Shown one piece after another: positions 1,804 through 14,339 of a stretch of DNA of 64,000 bases. The notes below the pieces were generated by a model. It saw nothing but the letters and a program-made list of their open reading frames with translations. It was not told the origin of the DNA and did no database searches. The translations under genes and the position numbers were made by a program. The stretch is from Plasmodiophora brassicae. Taxonomy: Eukaryota. Every line of letters begins with the position of its first letter. Position 1 is the stretch's first letter. The stretch is from positions 620,001 to 684,000 of the forward strand of contig CP145420.1 of NCBI GenBank assembly GCA_036867785.1, in the 5' to 3' direction.

Positions 1804-3484
1804 TCAGCGAATATCTTGCGCCGACTTGAGCCCCGTTTCGATCGCCTTGATGACGTTGTCTCTGTACCGCAAGACAACACGCGTGTAGTTGACGATCTCG
1901 GCCCGTGTCTTGTTCTCGAGCAACTCTTCGATGGGCTTCTCACTCAGGCCGTGCAGCAGCTCAGTGAACTTTTCCAGGCGCTCCTGGTGCTGTTCGAAAA
2001 TGTCCTTCTCGCTGGTGCCTTGAAGGTAGAACCCGTACGCGTACGTCCACATCAGGACACGTCGACAAGCAACGACAGCGTTCACGGCGTTGAGGACGAA
2101 CTGCACATCTTGATAGTTCGTGCCCTGAATGTCTCGAAGCAACTGCATTCGAGCCTCCGCGTCCTGCCTGGTCTTTCGAGCAAACTGGATCGATTTCTGG
2201 TGGTTGTCGAAACGTGTGAAGTAGAACATGTACTTCTGCAATGCATTGCGCGCCTCCTGGGCCTTCTGCTCCTCTTTCTCAAGCGAAGCATTCTCTCCTT
2301 TTGCTTTCGCTTCCTCGTACTTATTGCAGCGATAGAACCTGACATTAGTTCAGTGTACAACCGATACGAAAACGTTATCCCAGTCAACCTACCCTCCAGT
2401 GCCGCTGCCGTGCTTGCTCCAGTCGCCCTTGCACAGCCAGCAGAAATCGTACTTGCAGAACCGGCACGTCATATGGTTGCAACCTTGGTTCTTCTCAATG
2501 TTGACATGACATTTCGGGCAACGCTTGGTATTAGCGATGATCCAGTTGACGTTCTCCGAGTCCGTTGAGTTTTTCTTAAGCCATTGCTGGACAAGCTCGC
2601 ACGAACATGGTCGATGACCCTCCAGTCCACATTTGAAGCAGAACACATAGCCACACCGACATTCGATCTCAACTTCGCCACCCGTTCTGTTCTCAATGAC
2701 CTTATCACAGTCCGGGTTCGGGCACCACTTCATCTTCGTGCGATTGCCCTGGACGAACGCATCCAGCAGCCACTGCTTGAACTGTTGTCTTTTCGGACCG
2801 GGAAGTAATCGCAGCTGGATCTCCTCCGGGATCATAGCAGAGCACTTGAATCCAGGGCACGTCGTGAATACCGCCTGAGGACCCTTGTCGAATTCGGCGA
2901 CAACCCATTTCGTCCAGCATTCGATGCAGTACCGGTGGCCACACGACAGGCCGAGCGTGTCATCCATCGCAAATTTGTCCATACAGAGCGAGCAGACGAA
3001 GGGCCCATCACGGTCGGATACTTCAGTCGGAAGGATGACGCGAGCAAGGCCGACCTTAGTTTTCACCTAAACACCAAGTGTTAGTTGGGATGGCAGGGGA
3101 AATATAAAACCGGCGCAAATTCCAAATCCTTGCCTTATCCGGGTCGTCAAGCCAGTCGTTGATCAGGTTGAGGATGTTCCATCCGTACGCCCGAAGCAGA
3201 GTGGTGGCCTCTTCCGGAGACACAAACAACTGTTCGACGACGCGTTCGACTAGGATATTCTGGCGCTGCATCAGCTCCTGCTCCGTCAGAATCTCGTACG
3301 ACGGCTGACGATCCCGAACGGCGCACGCATCGCTGAGCTCCGTCGCTGTCGATTCCAGCGCCGGCCAGTCGCCATTGGCAACCTCTTCAACGACCTCATC
3401 GTCCCACCCAGTGTCGGACAAGGCCTCGGGCGACTCCTGCTCGGCCGCCTCCCAGTCGTCCTCCTCTGCGTCCTTCATATCCAT
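1804..3484 (-). CDS. Ariadne-family RBR E3 ubiquitin ligase (multi-exon)
   Basis: Acidic N-terminus, UBA-like LLRAYGWN, RING1 (CSLC..CGHRYCIEC), IBR (WCPNPDC..CRCGYVFCFKC), RING2 (KRCPKCHVNIEKNQGCNHMTC) and Ariadne domain (CRRVLMWTYAYGFYL). Confidence 0.93.
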
Positions 3485-3919
3485 CCTAGGACGACTGCCA
3501 CAGACGGGTAGCGGGTCGAGAATTGACTGGATTTCTCCACCAGTCGCAAAAAAAAAATCGTTCCCGATACGACTGCACCCGTTTTGGAACCTGTCGATGA
3601 ATTCCGCGCGGACGAAATGGCAGTTAAAGCCATTGGGGATCTGAGGATGGAGTCGACAGGGTACGGATCGATGGATACAGGCTATCGTCGCTCTAGGGTA
3701 TGCTGCCGGAAGCGGGGCGGCCCGTCGCAGGAGGATCGACAACCGAAGGGCGACGAAGACAGAGCGTCGTAGCACGCCAGCAACGACGCAGGTGTAAAAG
3801 CGGGGAATGGGGTTATCGTCCCAGGGCGTTATGTCGGTGAATGTGTAGCAACCGACCATGGGTACGTTTTAACAGCAGCGTACTCAGCTATCATCGGAGA
3901 AGACGACGGTGAAAACGAC

Positions 3920-6900
3920 ATGGCTGACGGCGCGAAGATGGCTGCGATTGATGATGCCGGCAGCGTCTACCGCACAACAAATCATACGCGGTCGGTTTCA
4001 GACGTGTCCGCCTTGGTTCAACAATACGGTTCCAGTGGGAGATCGTCTGCCACACATGCCCATGATGACAGCTCCGATGAAGACATGTCGGACATTGAGG
4101 AGGAAATCGAGGTCGACAGCACGAACGAGGTCATCAATCCGAATGATGGCACACGGCAGAGTACTGCGACGACGAATTTATTCGGGTCCCTGCGAGATGC
4201 TGTCACCACTAGCGTCCGGATGGCAATGGAGTCCAGGTTGACGGTTCGGCGCGAACAGAAGCGAATATTCGAATCGCTACAGAAAAGCGTTGGGCAGACG
4301 GCAATGCTACAGCGTGCTCTTGCAAACACTGTCGACTCATCGTCGCGTCAAGGTCAATCTTTCGCAAATGTCACTGTTCAAAGTGTGTTCGAAACGAAGA
4401 ACTTTCGACAATGCCTGCAGCATCCCAATTTGAAACCTCTTGCGATCCTTGAAGTCAAGAGACTGTGGTGTGCGCTGATGTTCCTCATTGAAGAGAAGAA
4501 TGTAAGGATGTCGAACCGTTCTACTTCGTTGCAAGGTTAACGTAAGTTCGCCAGGTGGAAGCATTTCTGCGATCGTATTCACCCTTGGAATCGAAAGCCG
4601 AGCCTACAACTATGTCATGGCAGCGAACGCATCGCTTCTGTATGGGGAACGTACTGTTGTCCTTGGTCATCAAGTTTTGCTGATACGTGTCCTCAGCGCA
4701 CTCGATTGGGGGAGATCTGTTTCAGAAAGCGGGGAAGACGAGTGAAGCACCTACATTAGAGGGCCTCTTCCGTCAACAGACCCTGCGAAGCACTGTGACA
4801 AGGGCCCAGCAGCAGTCGCATGGGCGGTCAGCTTCCGTCCAGATCAAGACGAGGCGCTCGCAACCAAGTCACCCAGTGAGCCCACGGGGGAACCTTGCGA
4901 ACCTCGAATACCGAAGAGCGTCCGTCGTTGAGACACCGACGGTTATCGATCCCCGTGGCTTCAACGCAATCGCAATCGATGCGGTTGTAACGCCAGAGTT
5001 TCGCGCTTCCGAGGCATCAAGATTCCGGAAAGTGTACGACATTGTGTTCCAAAAGGAAATCGAACGCTCCAGTCGGAACCTGCTTCTCCCGAGCGTCATA
5101 CGCGTGCTTCCCCATGAGAAACGCATCTACAAGAACCTTTGCGCGTTTCTCTACGCATGCATGGACAACGAAGAAGCCGAACTGAAGTCAGTCGATTGTG
5201 TCGCGTCAGAAATATGATCGCGTAACTGACGTTTCTGTTAAAGGTATCTGATGCGCTTGACACACTCGGCTCTAGGATATCTTCGCTCTATTGAGGCGTT
5301 TTCCAGTTCGCGAGACTCCAAAGGGTTCCTCAACAAAATCGATAATCTCCTGGCGCCGCTCCTGTATCGGGAACTGCCAGGGAACGATGAGCATGGGCCA
5401 GCTGGCCAGTCGACAATGGCGGCCAGCTCTATCACCGTTGCCGGCAGTGTCAGCGTTACCCGTGGTGGGTCAACAACTACGCTCGGAACGCACTGCCCGA
5501 TCAGAGCAGATCGCAAACAGAAAAAGCAAACAGAGACCGTAACAAAGGACACCAAGAGCGGCCATCGTATCCTCTGTGCCGCATTTCTGCTCCTTATTGT
5601 TGGATTCGCCGCAGTCTTACTGACGTGGGTATGGATTTACCCCACGTCGATTGGAAGTGCATTGAAGCTGTACACGGAGCAAGTTGCTGCCCGAGTGACA
5701 TCATTGCTGGAGACGGAAAGGTTTCGCCTCGCCTTTCTTTATTGGCGTGTGTGTTCATTTCTAATACCTATTTGCACAGCATATTGGCGGATGTGGCTAT
5801 GCAATTCCCTTTGAGGCCTGTCGATACCTGGATATCGACCAAGCAGCCGCCGCAGTTGCTGTTTGCACAACTTTCCCGAATACTGACAGCTGTGCCGTTG
5901 TCGTCAGCGGCCTGGGTCGCTTCTAGCTCGGGCTATGTCTGCGCCATTGCCCAAGGCGATAAGTCCCTAGGCCCTTCGATAATCGTATATGACGCTGCAT
6001 CAGGGATCTGCTTGCACAAAGGTACCTCCAGCACCGCGGTCCCCAATTCCGCTTGCCAGTCTGGAATTCCGTCAGGGAACCATGGAAACTTCACCTCGGT
6101 GGGCACCGTAGGAGGCATTCTGGGGATTTCTCGAGTCATGCCTGCTGTTTCACCCTCTGGGCGTAATGTCACTATTGGCGTCCATTTAGGCAGCGACCTT
6201 ATCGATAATAGTTTATCTTCGTTCGGGCTGCTTCCGTCCACGTTGATTCGGGTTTCTTCTTTGTCGCTTGACCTGGCATCGTGCAACACTGCCACTGGAT
6301 CAAGCAACGATGTTTTCTCGGAGGACAGTTTCTCTGCAATCAACGCGAAAGTTACAGCCACGATTCCTTCCCCTTTGGCGTGCGTTCCATGGACCACCAT
6401 TGTGGCTCTCTCCTTGACGAGCTGTCTTGTTGTTGCCTTGGCTTTTATTTGGCTGCTAACATCACCCGCAGCCCCGACAGCGTCGTCCAGGTTTTCGTCC
6501 GATGTGAATCTGTTCGCAAGTCGCTCTCTGAACTTCGATTTGCATGGAACGCCGCCTGGGACACCTACTGAAAAACAGCCAGTGGGTTCTGGTTGGCAAT
6601 TTCGATCAACGGCCATCGCACTGGTCAGTTTTGCCCTCACTACTGCAGCATGCCTATCGATCGCATTCGTTGTACACATTGGTTCCAATCTTTGCCTAGA
6701 TGAGATCGCGGATGCCACGTTGTCCCAGATGGGTTTCGTTATAAGCGAGAGGATTCGCCTAATGAGGGAACCACCTGCCATTGCGACAGCATCTATCGCA
6801 CTACTCGCACGTTCAGCACAGTCGTCCTTGTCTGTGGACACGATGTATAGGTGGACGTCGTTTGCGTTAACCGCTCTGGCTATTCGATCATCGAACATCC

Positions 6901-9900
6901 ACCTGGCTTCAGCAGTTACAATGACAGACCGGTTCGGGTCGAACGTTATCGGGACTGTATTTTCAGCCGTCAACGATTCTGCTACTGAGCCTGTGACCAT
7001 CCAAAGAGATCTGAACCCTTCTGCGCAAGATTGGTTCCGGTCTTCCACGCTCGATACTGGTCATTGGACCAGTCCGAGGACACTTGTTAGCGGCGAACTT
7101 GTGTTCACAAGGTCGCAGACGATCAGCCAGAACTCCACAATTGTTTGCATTGACTTCGATTCTTCAACGGCGCAGACGCTCCTTCAAATACTGACGCCGC
7201 CGTCGTGGGGCACCATGCAGATTGAGCGTGGCCGTACTGGCACTGTACTCGTCAGAGATCCGACAGGGGATGCCTTTGAGCAGCAAGGACCGCCAGTCCA
7301 AGGGCAGATCCAATCTGTTTCGGTGGATCGAATTGTTGTCGCTAATTACGATACGTTAGCCGTTCGCGTTACATTGCCGGACGCCTCTGTGGATGATTCA
7401 GCCTGGATGGCAGTTGCCACCGCGTCTGCCCGTTCCACATTGGGAGATTACAAGCGCGTGGAACTGATGGCATGGATAATCGTGATCGGCATTGTTGTCA
7501 TCATTGGCTTTATTGCAATGTCAAGTCTGTCGAAGTGGGAAAAGCGGATGATGCCACGAGACACAACTATGTCGGGTCTTGGCAAAGAGAAACTGTCGCC
7601 GGCGGCGCTGGAGGAGCACAAGGCGCGGATCAAGAAGCAAATCGTGGCGGCCTCTGCTCAGAGCTGGCGACGAAAGCGTGCCTCTCGTCGGGACACGCAA
7701 GAGGAAAACGATCAGCCTCTGGACTACGATGAAATCCAGGCACACGTGTCCGAACGTGCTGTCGGGCACATTCGCGATTCTCTGCACGACCGCAACATAC
7801 TTACTGTATGCGAACTGGAGGCGCGTGAGGGCGGTGAAGTCGATATCGCCATGTACCTGATCTTTTCGAACTCGATATCAAGGCTGCTGCTGTATGCGGC
7901 TATAGCGGTGCACATTGGGCTCCAGCTTGTAGAGCCAGCAACGCAGAAGGCGCTGGCCAACTGGGGGCCTTCTCCATTCGTCGTTGCAATCGAAGGCGTG
8001 TGTCTGGCTATCGAGTCAGCCTATATGGTGACGCAATTCCGTTTCAAGTACTTCGCGAAGGCAATGGACAATTGCTTGGTAGAGACCGCGATCGCCGCCG
8101 ATATTGCCCTGTGCGTCGTTCTCATTCTTTGCGCGGTGGACTGGATGTTATCCGCCACGATTTCTTTCAGCTTCGAGTATGCCTTCCCACTGCGCCCGTT
8201 TATCCCCTTCCTGTTCTCCCGTGATCTGCGGACAGCCCTCCTTCTGTTTGGTCGGGCGATTGTCCAGGCCGCCGACACTCTCATCCTCTGGCTGTCGACA
8301 CTGTTCATGTTTGCCATTGCTGGTGTAGTCATGTTTCGAGATTCCATCAATGTCGGCCAGTACGTCAGTAGCTTTGCGAACATTCGCGATTCGTTCACAA
8401 CCATATTCGTATTTGCCTCCACCGAGGACAACTACGGTGACGTCGTCTACCCTGCGTTTGACCTCCATTGTAAGTCTCGATATAGAATCGGTAACGACAT
8501 TTAACGGTGGTTGCTGTAGACTGGTATATTCTGTTTTTCGTCTTCTTATGGGTGTTTGGCGTGTTCTTCGTGCTCGCTGTCGTCGTCGGTTATTTCCAGT
8601 TCGAATTCTCGAACCACCAGGTCGAAGTCTTGCAGCAGCAGACCATGCTTGGGCGAACTGGCCTGGTTGCAGCGTTCATCTTGATAGACATTGATGAGAG
8701 CGGCGGTATTTCGGTCGATGAGTTCCGACAGTTCGTATCGGGATGCTGTGATGGGCCCCAATCCAGAGCACTCCTGGTCAAGGCGTTCGAGACTCTTGAT
8801 ACCAACCAGGACGGGCAGATGGATTTGTACGAATTCGTAACCGGCATGGAGAAGTTGAAACTGCATCGGCTGCTTCGAAGAGACAAACCGTCCCGCTCTA
8901 ACGTCAAGTGGCGCGTTTGGATGCGGGAGAACGTGTTCCAGGCTCGAAGTGACTGGTGGCGGAAGTTGATCGAGGTCCTGTTGCTTGTCGAGCTGCTTGC
9001 CGCATCTCTATACGGGCTATACTCGCCGATCCAGCACATCGACGCCGTGTGCCACACCCTTCTGTTACTATTTGTTGTCGAGATGGCTGCGAAGCTCGTT
9101 GTGTACGGCATCGATGAGGTATGATATGACTGCGTTGAAGTCTGATGGTTGACTGACACGCCTCCGAAGTACATGTGGTACACCAACTTCAACAGCAGCA
9201 TGTTTGAAAGAAGACTCGATGTCATTGTCGTGGCAACGTCGTTCTTCGGGTTTCTTCTGACGAGACTCATACAGCTGTACTATCACGGTCGGGCAGGCAA
9301 GTCTGATTGTGCTGTCCTTCTGTGCTCATTCTCGGGACTATTACAGGAACCCCTTTCTCAGTGTGGAATTACCTGCCTGGACCTCATGAGAACATGCTTC
9401 GGCTCCTGCAACTTTTGCCGCTGCTGAGGATCTTTTCACAGGTGAACACTTGTGGCCCAATCGCCTGCCTATACCTCTGTGCTGACCTTTCCAATCAGGT
9501 TAAAGTGCTCAGACGCGTGATCGTCAGCTTCTTGCGCTCAGCGAGCGTCTTTTTCAACCTCTTGGTTCTCTTGCTTCTCATCATCGACGTATACGCGGCC
9601 GTTGGTGTGTTCTTGTTTGCGGGAAGAATTGGCAATGCGATCACGATCTCGGCCGGGTTCAACAGCTACGGCGTCGCCCTTATATCACTTTTCCAGTGCC
9701 TGTAAGAGCGCCTCGCTGTCGTGTTTGATTAGATCCATAACGTGCCACAGGGTCCAACAAGACTGGCATTTCATAATGTACTCTTCCATCGTATCGACGT
9801 CGTGGTTCGCGGCCATCTACTTCATGTCGTTCGTCTTCCTGTGCTCGACGCTCTTCACAAACCTGTTCCTAGGGGTCGTCATATCCGTGTTTAGCAGAGT

Positions 9901-9958
9901 GTTCCAGCAGAAGCGATTCTCTAATGCTGACTTAATGCGCGCTGCCCTGGAGTCATAA
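3920..9958 (+). CDS. Two-pore-channel-like cation channel (2x6TM, central EF-hands) with a very long N-terminal extension; probably one spliced gene
   Basis: Pore I FTTIFVFASTEDNYGDVVYPAF; EF-hands DIDESGGISVDEF and DTNQDGQMDLYEF; S4-like LRLLQLLPLLRIF; pore II/S6 QDWHFIMY..YFMSFVFLCSTLFTNLFLGVVI. Upstream ORFs (3920, 4687, 5251, 5625) can be joined by short GT-AG introns. Confidence 0.75.
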
Positions 9959-10163
9959 ACGGCGACACCGTTTAACCAAAGCCTGGCTGGACTGGTTTAG
10001 CATTTTTCGAATACCCACCGATGAGATGGCCTTGGAGACGGCGCGACGACACGTTCCCGGCGAGGGTCGTACGTACCGGAATAGTGTGCACACTTCGGTC
10101 CGGCACAGCAGGGAATAACGACAACCGCGTAGATTGCGGCGTGATAACAAATATATATATACT

Positions 10164-10607
10164 TTAGCGCCTTCCAGGACATCGCCTTGTATGGAAGGCA
10201 TATTTCTGGGACGAGATGGTGCGTTGGCAATTGGCACATTGGAATGCGGCGGCGAGCAGCTTCGATCCTTGCTGCCCGAACACATCGACGCCGTCGCTGG
10301 CGTTGAACACGGCCGGCTCACTGGACGCAACGCAATGAGCACCCACGGTTAGCGAACGCAATAAGGGGGCGGCGATGTGCGACCATTTGCCCGTGGATTT
10401 CGCTGCGCGATGCACATCAAAGCACACGTCCACGGCAACCTCCTCGACGATCGAATCGAACAGGTCCTTCACGATCGTATCGAAATCGATCACGTTCAGC
10501 AGCGACTGCAGTGCGGTCGCCGTCGCCAGTCGAGCCTGCAGGCGCGCAATCTCCAGATCCTTGGCCTTCACTGACGACGACGACGCGGCGTCGTCCACGC
10601 CGTCCAT
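10164..10607 (-). CDS. SGF11: SAGA deubiquitination-module subunit Sgf11/ATXN7L3-like
   Basis: N-terminal helix LFDSIVEEVAVDVCFDVHR, DVFGQ motif, and zinc finger CANCQRTISSQKYAFHTRRC. Confidence 0.82.
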   Translation of the reverse strand: MDGVDDAASSSSVKAKDLEIARLQARLATATALQSLLNVIDFDTIVKDLFDSIVEEVAVDVCFDVHRAAKSTGKWSHIAAPLLRSLTVGAHCVASSEPAVFNASDGVDVFGQQGSKLLAAAFQCANCQRTISSQKYAFHTRRCPGRR

Positions 10608-10901
10608 GACGGACTGCAATCCCACGGACTGCGATCCTTCCCACGACCGGCAGTCGACGCGGTCGCGTCCCGTCCACGTCCAACGCGCCCACGCTGCGGC
10701 GCCGGGCCCTGTCATATTACGGTGTCACGGCATAAGGCGCCGTTCGCCGGAAGCGGCCCCTGTCTATAGGCAGCGGGCAGAGTGGCATCTGTCCACGTGA
10801 CCGACAGACTGACGGTTGTCGACTGCCGCAGGTGCTGCCTGACTGATCGATCGCGGACTAATCAGTAATCATCAAGTGCGCCGCGGATCCGACCCCTGAC
10901 G

Positions 10902-11913
10902 ATGGCTGCGGATGACGTCGTGTCTGGCGATCGCAGCGACGATGAAGGTCAGCACGACCCGACGGCCATGTCGATCGGGAAACGGCACCACATGGAGAAG
11001 ATGGTATGCCGAGGTTCGGGGGTGTCCCCCCTGGTACGCGTCGATTGAGGCATGCATCGACAGGCCCTGAAGAAGCAGTGCGCTGACATCCTGCAAGCAG
11101 CGAATAAGGGCGACAAGAACGCGAAGAAGCAGGCGAAGGTTCGCGTCAAGCAGCTCGAAGCTGAATTGAAGGAGCGGCACGAACGAGAGTCACGTGATAG
11201 CGCACAGGTCGCTGACGACGATGTCGAGCGGCTGGCTGACGCTGTGGATCGGGTCGAAGTCGGCGACAGGACATCGAAGAAGGAGAGACGGCAGGTATCA
11301 CGGGAACAACATTTTACAACCTCGTCGGGGTTCCCTGAATGGGTGTTGGGTCCAGGCGAGACGTGCAGCCGAAGACGCGGCGCGTCGGCTGGCCCTCGAA
11401 GACGAGCTGAAGAACGTGGAAGACCCGCGTCAGGTCGAGATCGACATGCTGTCGTCCAAGCTGTCCACGCTTGGCATGGCGATCAAGGAGATTCGCCCCG
11501 ATGGCCACTGCTTGTACCATGCCGTGGCAGACCAGCTGGAGCGGATTGGCGAGACGGTTGCGGGACCTAGGCATGCGACGCTGCGTCAGCGCGCCTCGTC
11601 CTACATGCTGGAGAACGCCAACGCCTTCCTGCCTTTCATGCTGACCGACGAGGGCGCTCTCTTGTCGGAGAAGGAGTTCGAAACGCACTGCGCCGCCATT
11701 GTCGACACGAACGACGTCGTCTGGGGCGGGCAACCGGAGCTGTCAGCGCTGGCGGCCGCGTTCCAATGCCGCATCATTGTCTATTCGTCGGACGCGGACC
11801 CGATCGTCATGGGCGATGCGGATGACGGGAGGACGCTGCGAGTCTCGTTCCACCGCCATTACCTGATGGGGCACCACTACAACTCGGTCGTCCCCAACGA
11901 CGTGCAGCAATGA
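10902..11913 (+). CDS. OTU-domain deubiquitinase (OTUD6B/Otu2-like), spliced
   Basis: Charged coiled N-terminus, catalytic IRPDGHCLYHAVADQL, WGGQPEL, and SFHRHYLMGHHYNSV. ATG at 10902 is followed by a GTATG intron. Confidence 0.9.
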
Positions 11914-12054
11914 AGGCCATGCCCGTTGTATATAGCAACCAACCGCTTGAAAGACACGCTACGACGGCAGCCTCCCTTACGCCGCCTGGACCGTGTCGTA
12001 GAACAATCGCCCATGGGAAGCGAATTGCCACTCCACACTGATCAGTCGGCGGGT

Positions 12055-12873
12055 TCATCTTGTGGTTCTGGATCGCCTACAGCAGTAGTTGCTCGAGAAC
12101 CACAGCCAGAGCTCATTGGATCTCGTCATGAGCACCGCCCCAGCCCGGGGGCTGAGCGCCGACGCCCGGGCGTCGTGGTTCGCAGCGGACAGCAACGATC
12201 GCACGAGCTCGAGGGAGATCCCCCACAGGTACCGGGGAGCGCCATCGACAGCGATGGCCGGCAGCGCGAACCACTGCCGAGGCAGCGAGCGGAACACGAC
12301 GCGCAGCGCAGGCGGGTACCGAGCCACGAAATCGGACACGGCATAGACGTCGAAGTCGACAGGGGATCGATGCAGGCGCCGCAGGCTGACCCAGAATACG
12401 TCGGCAACCTCGCGCTCGTCGCGAACAACGACCAGCGGGCCGGGCGATATCTGGACGACAACTGGCACACCATGTTATGCGACGAACGCGACTGTCGACC
12501 CCAAACGAGCGCGCCTACCGAACGCGTGGATGATGAGGTCGGCGCCGGCCTTGACCAGCGGGCGCAGGCGACCGACGAACGTGAACATGGACGCGTCGCG
12601 CAGGTCGACGCCAATCTCCTCGTGCACCTCCCTGACGACGGTCTGGAGCGGCGACTCGCCCGGCGCGCACCGCCCGCCCGGGAACGCGACATGCCCCGAC
12701 CACCGGTCGCGCTCGTCGGTCGCCCGCTGGATGAACAGCATGTCGGCGTGCTCCGACGTCACGAGCGCCGCCCCATGCGACGTGATCGGGCCTGTCGTCC
12801 CGGGCACGACCGTCCCATCGTGCGCGCCGCGAACGATAACGGCCACGGCGGCGACGTTGCGCGCGCACGACAT
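12055..12873 (-). CDS. Nudix hydrolase, CoA pyrophosphatase type (NUDT7/8/Pcd1-like); 3' end uncertain
   Basis: AAVAVIV..LFIQRA..WSGHVAFPGGRCAPGESPLQTVVREVHEEIGVDL (Nudix box); the downstream exon contains EVADVFWVSL and LWGIS. Confidence 0.85.
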
Positions 12874-13259
12874 GCGCCTGGCGTCGACGACCGTGGATGT
12901 GGTCGCGCGTCCTGCTCCATTCCCGTCCTTCTGCCTGCGTCCGGTCAGCGATCTGGAATTCCGACAACGGAACCGGCAGACCGGACGCTTCCTGGGGGGA
13001 GGCGTGCCCACTGCGGCGCGCGCCTTCGTCCCCGACCTCAACGACGCGCGCCCTGGGACGGCTGCCTGCTGCTTGGCGGTAACGTGTCGACTTGTGGGAC
13101 CCGGATGGCGCCAATGCCACTGGTGTGTTCAGATATTCTCTGCCTGGAATGGTCCTGCGTCACGTTAGTCAGGAGAGAGACGACGGGCGACGCCGACGCC
13201 CACCACCGTCCGTCCAGTTGTCGAATTGGTCGTCTGGCGGGCAGGTCGGATCGGTTGCC

Positions 13260-14339
13260 ATGGTCGCGATGCGAACCTCGCTGGTCGTTGCCGTTGCCGT
13301 CGCCCTGTGCGTCCCCTGCGCACGCGCCGATTACGAGTACGGCGGGTGCCGGGCGCTGATGGCGGTCGCGTCGCCCAAGTGGTGCTTCGACGTAAGCGAT
13401 CGCGTTGACCGATCGCTACCCCTAGATGCCAACCGGTGCCTGTAGAACTGCCACCACGTCCCGACGTTCTGCCCGTCCGATTACTGCTCGCCCGAATGCG
13501 CTCCGTCTGGCGTCGTCCAGAAGCCGTTCGAAAGTTACTACGCGGCGCCGTCCGACTCGTACGAGGTCGCGCCCGAACAGGACGCCTACAACGTGCAGAC
13601 GTCGTCTGAGGCGCACGAGTACTACGCCGAGAAGACCGACTACGAGGACGCCGCTCCAGCGTACAGCGACGAAACGGTCGAATACGAGGAAACGTACGAG
13701 GAGGAGCCGTCGTCGACGTCCGCAGAGTACGAGCTCAAGGAGCCTTACGTGTACGAACGCGAGACGGAGGAAGCGTACCCGGCGCACGAGACCGACGAGG
13801 AGTATGTCGAGGAGGACGAGTACGTCGAGGAGGACGAGTACGTCGAAGAGGAGCCGTCCTCGGGCTCAGACGAGTACGTCGAGAAGGAACCGTCCTCGGG
13901 CTCAGACGAGTACGTCGAGAAGGAACCGTCCTCCGGCTCAGACGAATACGAGCTGAAGCCGGCGTACGAGACCGATCCCGCGTCGTATGGTGTGGATGAG
14001 TCCAGAGAAGAAGACGAAGAGTATGTCGCACCCGCGAAATACGGCGAGATCTCCACGAAGGAGTACGAGCAGGGCAGTGACGAGTACGACGACGGGGCCG
14101 GACTGGAGGAGTACGAGATCTATAACGCTCCGGCAAGTTACGACGAGTTGGAGGAGACGAACAAGGCTTCGAAGGAGTACGACGACGACGACGACGAGAC
14201 GTACGTTGACGCCAGCTACGAGTACGATGGGAGCGACCACGAGTACGTTGATGCGGAGCCGCCGGTCGACTACTACTACCCACAAGCTTCGGCCGACGCC
14301 CCCGAGTCCTATGAAGCGCCCAAGCGGCCCTACAACTGA
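13260..14339 (+). CDS. Secreted Cys-rich-N-terminus, Glu/Tyr/Asp-rich acidic repeat protein
   Basis: Signal peptide MVAMRTSLVVAVAVALCVPCARA; intron GTAAGC..TGTAG (~13392-13445) joins in frame to NCHHVPTFCPSDYCSPEC and the E/Y-rich ORF ending at 14339. Confidence 0.8.
13795..13952 (+). repeat. Coding tandem repeats: 18-bp (EYVEED) units, then three 36-bp (EPSSGSDEYVEK) units
   Basis: Seen directly: gagtacgtcgaggaggac repeated, and ccgtcctc(g/c)ggctcagacga three times. Confidence 0.85.

Follow-up and report, generated by a model that had tools for sequence, protein, structure and literature searches.

A two-pore-channel-like gene of Plasmodiophora brassicae in which two putative ectodomains precede the channel core in a single spliced transcript

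As a rule, two-repeat channels of the two-pore channel (TPC) type are described as consisting of the channel alone, regulated from the cytosol. Arabidopsis TPC1 (5E1J, 5DQQ) carries two Ion_trans repeats of six transmembrane (TM) helices each in one chain, with an EF-hand pair in the cytosolic linker. The same layout is predicted for the product of PBRA_003307, a gene of the clubroot pathogen Plasmodiophora brassicae that spans positions 3700/3920-9958 of the + strand in the window, i.e., the whole 64,000-nucleotide stretch of DNA analysed here (contig CP145420.1, positions 620,001 to 684,000). Public records name the gene only as 'hypothetical protein' or 'EF-hand domain-containing protein'. 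Judged by predicted layout, plant TPC1 is its closest solved relative. The P. brassicae protein differs from Arabidopsis TPC1 in having an N-terminal addition of about 1,300 residues with four TM helices and two putative ectodomains, in filters that align to the T-x-D-x-W-type filters of CatSper and Cav channels, and in the fact that Cav repeats outscore TPC1 in sequence comparisons.

Alpha2delta and Mid1/FAM155 are separate auxiliary subunits of four-repeat channels, and CACHD1 stands beside alpha2delta as a Cache-domain auxiliary subunit of animal voltage-gated Ca2+ channels. Large extracellular domains accompany a voltage-gated-type cation channel there too, and the domain pairing would be the same if the P. 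brassicae loops were Cache-like; those domains belong to a separate protein, whereas in P. brassicae they are in the same chain and are only putatively Cache. In animals, Cav channels are served by Cache domains that sit on a separate subunit, alpha2delta (PMC549065). The same source describes prokaryotic Cys-loop channels to which Cache, MCP-N or PBP domains are fused, proposed to be chemotaxis receptors. These fusions are a precedent for a sensor domain covalently joined to an ion channel, but they represent an unrelated pentameric class whose N-terminal fusion is single and which lacks a four-helix cassette (PMC549065). Among protist TPCs, Toxoplasma gondii TgTPC (1,502 aa) resembles the P. 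brassicae protein in being much longer than animal and plant TPCs, with an extended N-terminus and filters unlike theirs; it differs in lacking EF-hands, of which there are two here, and no extra TM helices or ectodomains are described for it in the available part of the source (PMC8490419). The TM-sensor-TM layout of prokaryotic chemoreceptors and histidine kinases is also comparable, in that each P. brassicae loop is a putative extracytoplasmic domain of 230-260 aa between two TM helices with predicted helices at its start, and dCache_1 and related PDC families are the nearest language-model clusters of the P. brassicae loops. However, there is no sequence or profile similarity to these sensors, the output is a channel instead of a kinase or methyl-accepting domain, and the two tandem modules are not detectably related to each other. 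No paper was found on PBRA_003307 or on a TPC with such a cassette, although the supplements of P. brassicae genome and transcriptome papers may list the gene. The effect of Ca2+ antagonists on zoospore motility and chemotaxis has been studied in Spongospora (PMC8921600).

The cassette, i.e., the four extra helices with their two loops, and the channel were confirmed to form a single gene with a single spliced transcript. A run index returned 24 runs, 20 of which, from 10 studies, held at least half of the sampled words; none was recorded as RNA. The evidence for splicing consisted of the contigs of four runs (X1, X2, X3 and X15) mapped on 3700-10100, where X1 to X3 represent three studies. 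Eight of the ten GT..AG joints were present in all of X1, X2 and X3, and the other two in one run each: intron 9119-9169 was spliced in X3 only and retained in the X1 and X2 contigs, and intron 9442-9498 was spliced only in a short X1 piece and retained in the X2 and X3 contigs. Run X15 had none of the ten joints and looks like genomic DNA. Single contigs of X2 (8,658 nt) and X3 (7,627 nt) covered 3700-10100 across joints. Short GT..AG introns with CTRAY-like branch sites were also visible by eye in the letters. The exons (from contig joints) and the GT..AG introns (from spliced contigs) of PBRA_003307 are the following:

3700-3832, + strand: exon, followed by intron 3833-3887
3888-4501, + strand: exon, followed by intron 4502-4554
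4555-4639, + strand: exon, followed by intron 4640-4696
4697-5186, + strand: exon, followed by intron 5187-5243
5244-5720, + strand: exon, followed by intron 5721-5779
5780-8469, + strand: exon, followed by intron 8470-8519
8520-9118, + strand: exon, followed by intron 9119-9169
9170-9287, + strand: exon, followed by intron 9288-9346
9347-9441, + strand: exon, followed by intron 9442-9498
9499-9701, + strand: exon, followed by intron 9702-9750
9751-9958, + strand: exon

The joined exons are open to a single final stop, with 1,903 codons from the ATG at 3700 and 1,848 from the ATG at 3920; the former ATG is 55 codons upstream of the latter, across intron 3833-3887. The 1,903-aa form, which is used for residue numbering, is identical to the public protein XXQ37098.1 and differs at 7 residues from CEP03700.1 (PBRA_003307). 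One public assembly splits the locus into SPQ99665 (700 aa) and SPQ99664 (788 aa), with source names tagged '(mitochondrion)', whereas the 1,903-aa form appears in two other public models. The last residues of the 700-aa model disagree with the spliced transcript, the contigs do not support the split, and the two-protein annotation is probably a gene-prediction error. Both loops, the fourth extra helix (TM-d), the linker and channel repeat I are carried by the uninterrupted 2,690-nt exon 5780-8469, which has no stop and, in the X1-X3 contigs, no joint inside. An earlier interpretation of this DNA from the letters alone, the sequence-only reading, had built on a 959-aa open reading frame (ORF) that joins TM-flanked segments to a channel. 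The + strand at 3700-9958 does hold a series of open frames, with the 959-aa ORF at 5625-8504 and an Ion_trans match in it (E 4.2e-07, Pfam). This ORF joins the loops to repeat I as proposed, but its extent had to be corrected to the true exon, since its first 52 codons are intron or other frame. The transcript check suggested at the time was answered by the spliced contigs of three studies, which join all exons and do not split the channel from the N-terminal modules.

The product was shown to be a predicted 16-TM protein, in which a cytosolic region of about 550 aa is followed by the four-helix cassette with two ectodomains, a linker and a plant-TPC1-like core of two repeats with EF-hands. 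Its parts are listed below, with reference to P0002, a MetaClust record of a relative to which we return later:

3700-5568, + strand: predicted cytosolic N-terminal region, residues 1-549, with 4 introns and no recognisable domain
5569-5640, + strand: TM-a, residues 550-573, hydropathy maximum 2.86; aligns with the hydrophobic stretch that starts P0002
5641-6380, + strand: putative extracytoplasmic domain 1 (loop 1), residues 574-800, 227 aa, between TM-a and TM-b, interrupted by intron 5721-5779
6381-6461, + strand: TM-b, residues 801-827, hydropathy maximum 2.53
6462-6611, + strand: short, predicted cytosolic loop, residues 828-877, between TM-b and TM-c
6612-6683, + strand: TM-c, residues 878-901, hydropathy maximum 2.26
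6684-7460, + strand: putative extracytoplasmic domain 2 (loop 2), residues 902-1160, 259 aa, between TM-c and TM-d
7461-7526, + strand: TM-d, residues 1161-1182, hydropathy maximum 2.97
7527-7874, + strand: conserved, predicted cytosolic linker with a polybasic stretch, residues 1183-1298, 53% identity to P0002
7875-8611, + strand: channel repeat I (S1-S6), residues 1299-1527, Pfam Ion_trans, intron 8470-8519, filter STEDNY at 8418-8435
8612-8959, + strand: inter-repeat linker, residues 1528-1643, EF-hand loops at 8687-8722 and 8798-8833
8960-9904, + strand: channel repeat II (S1-S6), residues 1644-1886, Pfam Ion_trans, introns 9119-9169, 9288-9346, 9442-9498 and 9702-9750, S4 at 9394-9516, filter QQDW at 9755-9766
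C-terminal tail: residues 1887-1903, 17 aa

The extra helices were called from Kyte-Doolittle maxima over 19 aa (2.26-2.97). The flanks follow the positive-inside rule, with 7 K+R among the 20 residues that precede TM-a and 2 behind it, and the linker that follows TM-d is strongly basic (19 K+R). Therefore, hydropathy and the K+R flanks place the N-terminus as well as the linker in the cytosol and both loops on the extracytoplasmic side. A cytosolic linker is also required by the channel, because S1 must start from the cytosol. The two TM-flanked extracytoplasmic segments of the sequence-only reading were thus recovered between four strongly hydrophobic segments, and its loop coordinates agree with ours, but the first flanking helix sits in the preceding exon, 5244-5720. 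Its estimate of an N-terminus of about 1200 aa was also right, as the channel S1 begins at residue 1299 of 1903 (1244 of 1848), and the strings it quoted were located at 7023-7046 (AQDWFRSS), 7059-7085 (GHWTSPRTL) and 7098-7115 (LVFTRS), besides the two filters listed above. By direct reading, Ser, Thr, Gly and Ala are abundant in the loops, each of which has two N-x-S/T sequons. Their placement between two TM helices is necessary for Cache/PDC sensors but not specific to them. The N-terminal region matched no Pfam family, either in its ORF pieces or in the public protein that covers it (P0006).

The TPC-like identity of the core is supported by layout and alignment rather than by a tree. Besides the Ion_trans match in the 959-aa ORF, the second repeat was matched in the ORFs at 9307-9705 and 9602-9958 (E 6.2e-09 and 8.7e-11, respectively), and Ion_trans covers two stretches in both CEP03700.1 (P0003; E 9e-36) and P0002 (E 3.4e-40). 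Between the repeats, the ORF at 8507-9124 holds an EF-hand pair (EF-hand_1, E 2.2e-11; EF-hand_1, _5, _6 and _7 above the Pfam cut-offs). Both 12-residue EF-hand loops are canonical by direct reading, with D at position 1, D/N at 3, S/D at 5 and E at 12, and the EF-hand exon matched the EF-hand pairs of hippocalcin and CDPK in the PDB sequence search. In the public 788-aa piece, which runs from TM-d to the end (P0004), residues 261-768 are collinear in one stretch with residues 158-676 of Arabidopsis TPC1, from repeat I S5 to the end of repeat II (PDB, E 7.5e-16 to 1.8e-14). Human TPC2 (E 1.7e-08) and TPC3 (E 5.6e-07) were weaker PDB matches of the same piece. These results are consistent with the TPC layout proposed in the sequence-only reading.

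Repeat I alone matched only CatSper3 among PDB sequences (E 0.0025), and D1483 of its S-T-E-D-N-Y filter falls on the Asp of the CatSper3 T-V-D-G-W filter, of the T-x-D-x-W type. V-Q-Q-D-W of repeat II pairs with T-G-E-D-W of Cav1.3 repeat II, an alignment that puts Q1838 at the position of the Cav selectivity Glu. D1483 and Q1838-D1839-W1840 are invariant in P0002. The remark in the sequence-only reading that the filters are unlike typical TPC motifs may hold, in that they align to CatSper3 and Cav1.3 filters. When S4 of repeat II was aligned to Cav1.3 repeat I, the four arginine positions were occupied by R, Q, P and R, with K and RR next in line. With only two of the four arginine positions kept in this repeat, control by voltage may be weakened.

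To find relatives, the 586-aa cassette (window 5781-7538) was scored against 1.84 billion protein representatives. Two matches were obtained at E<=0.001, the protein itself and P0002 (1,376 aa; E 1.8e-19, 28% identity). P0002 has TM-a, loop 1, TM-b, TM-c, loop 2, TM-d, the linker, repeat I, the EF-hands and repeat II in this order, and it is probably cut at its 5' end because it starts inside TM-a. Its identity to the P. brassicae protein is 22% in loop 1, 33% in loop 2, 52% in repeat I, 59% in the EF-hand region and 51% in repeat II, besides the value for the linker given above. The linker includes a 16-residue block, QPLDYDEIQAHVSERA (7713-7760), that is invariant against P0002, and in loop 2 the block RDLNP..W..S.T..G.W...R.L..G..VF..SQ.I....V.IDF at about 7005-7160 is invariant as well. 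Further searches added no member: a long-protein search with the linker and repeat I gave only P0002 among 2,561 candidates, a short-protein search with both loops gave only the protein itself among 8,000 scored candidates, none of the 346 pattern matches of a metagenome scan for the cassette was confirmed, and a protein search with the channel part at a strict E<=1e-10 gave only the protein itself and P0002. The cassette layout is known from these two sequences only. P0002 presumably comes from another plasmodiophorid and, as far as can be seen, the channel variant is restricted to plasmodiophorids. That the frame is spliced as predicted in three studies and that P0002 keeps the order of parts place the arrangement beyond chance.

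The sequence-only reading had likened the loops to Cache modules and a string in loop 2, 'AQDWF..GHWTSP..LVFTRS', to the dCache ligand motif 'PWY..W..PY'. No sequence comparison supported this claim. Pfam at E<=10 gave no family for loop 1 (window 5781-6380) or loop 2 (6687-7457) and no Cache family in full-length P0003 or P0002, i.e., in any of the four queries. A profile of loop 2 had no match at E<=10 among PDB sequences and none in five prokaryotic megaplasmid records, although the latter empty answer is uninformative by the tool's own statement. For direct comparison, a dCache_1 reference was assembled from 14 matches in 3 proteobacterial megaplasmids; 11 loci were tried and gave 10 domains, a small and narrow set that omits L003, for which no flanking TM pair was found, and L017-L019, which are weak partial matches. 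Other Cache-clan families were too rare in the five megaplasmid records to serve as references (PF22673, one sub-threshold match; PF21623, none; PF08269, three). Comparison of the loop profiles, of two sequences each, with the ten dCache_1 domains yielded hhalign probabilities of 0.05% (loop 2) and 0.3% (loop 1). The motif and full hidden Markov models (HMMs) of dCache_1 were run against four loop sequences, and in the eight tests 45 to 500 of 500 shuffles reached the real score. The likeness of the loop 2 string to the Cache motif is thus not above chance, since the HMM scores were no better than those of shuffled sequence. Nor did hhalign find similarity between loop 1 and loop 2, which argues that there is no detectable internal duplication.

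A protein language model gave a different picture. The neighbours of loop 2 scored 0.93-0.96, and its 30 hits comprised 12 dCache_1, 2 MCP-like_PDC_1, 1 HK-GC-Chemotax_sensor and 15 without family; those of loop 1 scored 0.93-0.95 and included HK_sensor_dom_bact, dCache_1 (10 of 30), MCP-like_PDC_1, CHASE9 and dCache_3. Shuffled proteins reach 0.95 about once in 100. The best named hits shared a family or clan in 10 of 10 and 9 of 10 cases for the two loops, and the 'recognition' value of loop 2 was 2594, where 2300 is reached by 91 in 100 known-family proteins. AlphaFold2 was run on loop 2 with alignments of two sequences. The mean pLDDT (predicted local distance difference test) was 33.8 with the P. 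brassicae sequence first and 30.6 with P0002 first, and 244 of 261 and 267 of 267 residues, respectively, were below 50. Because the alignments had only two sequences, these low values are uninformative on order versus disorder. In a Foldseek search of the PDB with the second model, the best match reached E 0.029 and none passed E<=0.001, a result that is meaningless for such a model. In both runs LVFTRSQTIS and STIVCIDF of P. brassicae, or the residues aligned with them, were modelled as two adjacent strands, and the P0002 run placed a helix over NEQWYMS before them; these features are only hints. A further helix after the strands appeared in the P0002 run only, in a stretch that is gapped in P. 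brassicae. We read these data to mean that, to the language model, both loops resemble prokaryote-style extracytoplasmic sensor domains, with no Cache-family membership by sequence. A PDC-like fold of the loops has roughly equal chances of being right or wrong, and at best the ectodomains are very distant relatives of prokaryotic PDC/Cache-type sensors.

We hypothesize that the protein is a lineage-specific, receptor-like TPC variant whose putative ectodomains tune gating, a reading for which our confidence is evenly divided. By analogy with other two-repeat channels, the protein would assemble as a dimer. The pore ring would then comprise D1483 and Q1838 taken twice (D/Q/D/Q) with further acidic neighbours, a composition that would point to permeation of cations, probably Ca2+. 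Cytosolic Ca2+ may act through the EF-hands, either in activation or in modulation, and voltage control by repeat II may be weakened. The ectodomains would be folded, fast-evolving modules facing the outside or the lumen, and they may act on gating by way of TM-d and of the highly conserved linker, which leads into S1, as in a receptor-like channel.

Several points weigh against this hypothesis. Cav repeats outscore TPC1 (best PDB E 1.4e-24), through several local stretches. The sequence tests for Cache are all negative, whether by Pfam, PDB profile, hhalign, HMM or megaplasmid search. The features shared with the language-model neighbours are 130-158 of 256, fewer than the 170 that true family members typically share, and by the tool's own statement its calibration does not extend to protein parts. 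The AlphaFold2 models are unusable, so a different fold of the loops is possible. Since contigs cannot show transcript starts or ends, an internal start might also yield a channel-only isoform, and introns 9119-9169 and 9442-9498 are each retained in the contigs of two of the three spliced runs. Finally, ion selectivity, dimer formation and membrane location are inferences, and any binding by the ectodomains or effect of theirs on gating is putative.

The loops might instead be structural, a built-in auxiliary part that serves folding, trafficking, glycan shielding or anchoring and has no specific ligand; or, should the channel lie in an internal membrane, they might sense only luminal ions or pH in bulk. 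We consider this explanation, the main rival, possible but somewhat unlikely. It agrees with the failure of Pfam, PDB sequence profiles and hhalign to find a ligand-binding family; the low identity of the orthologue in the loops (22-33%) and the within-species substitutions clustered there fit relaxed constraint as readily as adaptive change. In addition, known TPCs reside in internal membranes (PMC8490419), so the loops may face the lumen. On the other hand, the nearest language-model neighbours of both loops are dedicated sensor domains, the TM-domain-TM unit, a standard layout of prokaryotic sensors, occurs twice, and the segment from TM-d to S1 is among the best-conserved parts, with its 16-residue invariant block, which suggests a coupling role for the linker. 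Another explanation, advanced in the sequence-only reading, takes the loops as true ligand-binding domains of the dCache family and the protein as a chemoreceptor channel for zoospore chemotaxis or spore germination. The share of dCache_1 among the language-model hits of both loops, the loop sizes of 227 and 259 aa, which are in keeping with dCache, and, weakly, the order of a helix then two or three strands over the conserved block in the low-confidence AlphaFold2 models, which fits the Cache motif region, speak in its favour. With Cache absent at the permissive Pfam threshold, hhalign probabilities well below one percent, HMM scores that shuffles reach, two loops that are not detectably related to each other, and a number of features shared with the language-model neighbours below the range of one family, we regard it as quite improbable.

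The remaining explanations question whether there is one protein or whether the loops are folded. Two neighbouring genes, one for an N-terminal membrane protein and one for a channel, could have been misread as one, as the public split into SPQ99665 and SPQ99664 would have it, and contigs cannot prove transcript ends. This is very hard to reconcile with a junction between cassette and channel that lies inside a single open 2,690-nt exon, with the lack of any joint or break in 5780-8469 in the spliced contigs of three studies, and with P0002, from another organism, being equally continuous, besides the two public models of 1,903 aa; such an artefact is highly unlikely. It is just as improbable that the loops are largely disordered, low-complexity spacers. 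The pLDDT below 50 nearly throughout loop 2 and the Ser/Thr/Gly/Ala-rich composition would fit spacers, but two-sequence alignments are expected to give low pLDDT for any fold, the loops retain invariant hydrophobic and aromatic blocks in spite of their low overall identity, the strands of both AlphaFold2 runs fall on the same aligned residues, and the language-model recognition of loop 2 exceeds the value that most known-family proteins reach.

If the hypothesis of a receptor-like TPC variant is correct, four extra helices and two outward domains in one chain would be a new coupling of an outside or luminal signal to a TPC-type pore, and would offer a natural experiment in the cross-talk between added membrane modules and a voltage-sensor domain. 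PBRA_003307 also matters to plant pathology, as its product is a membrane protein of restricted lineage, with large domains predicted to be exposed, in a crop pathogen that cannot be cultured and whose host sensing by spores and zoospores is not understood. In a bolder form, which we consider unlikely, two prokaryote-type PDC/Cache modules, each flanked by a TM pair of its own, were built onto a TPC-type pore, and an external cue, e.g., a root-exudate compound, directly gates Ca2+ entry in plasmodiophorid zoospores or resting spores. Were that true, such a PDC/Cache receptor-channel would correspond, in cis, to the Cache-bearing alpha2delta subunit of animal Ca2+ channels, and it would be a candidate for the receptor by which the clubroot pathogen senses its host.

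Variation within P. brassicae was found in the cassette and at its border. The two haplotypes represented by XXQ37098.1 and CEP03700.1 differ at residues 679, 742, 743, 756, 823, 866 and 1185. All seven differences are within residues 679-1185 (window about 5950-7540), four of them in loop 1, with none in the first 678 residues and none in the approximately 720 residues after 1185, which comprise the remainder of the linker and the channel. If differences were spread evenly, the chance of finding seven of seven in the 612-residue cassette would be (612/1903)^7, about 4e-4, although two of them are adjacent and may be one event. The difference at residue 1185 was seen as a single A>C at 7534 in run X3. 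This clustering is compatible with adaptive change and with relaxed constraint at an exposed surface alike.

Several minor observations were made on the transcript. A single 224-nt first intron at 4502-4725, proposed from sequence alone, was dropped; the contigs give two short introns around an 85-nt exon. Intron 9442-9498 is 57 nt long, in frame and stop-free, and its retention would add 19 residues just after S4 of repeat II, either as a possible alternative isoform or through slow splicing. Reading through intron 9119-9169 would meet a stop two codons in (GAG GTA TGA) and truncate the protein after S2 of repeat II. P0002 matches the spliced forms at both introns. Run X15 has a 159-nt contig at 9035-9193 whose depth is about 178, where neighbouring contigs have about 80-105, together with a back-joint that carries 15 additional letters; these features may reflect an assembly-graph bubble or a small repeat.

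The gene is flanked on both sides by genes on the opposite strand. Head-to-head with it, at 2389-3859 (- strand), is a gene for an ariadne-type RBR E3 ubiquitin ligase with a RING, two IBR and an ARIH1-like UBA domain. The likely start of the ligase, MDMKDAEEDDW, is near 3484, about 215 bp from the channel ATG at 3700, and the two genes probably share a promoter region. The unstranded contigs extend into the ligase gene. Tail-to-tail with the channel gene, at 10164-10715 (- strand), there is a neighbour whose Sgf11-type zinc finger is a weak match (E 1.5e-04, below the cut-off), and the X2 contig runs about 2.6 kb past 10100. The G+C content is 51-58% across the channel gene and 60-70% at 10500-14000, just downstream.

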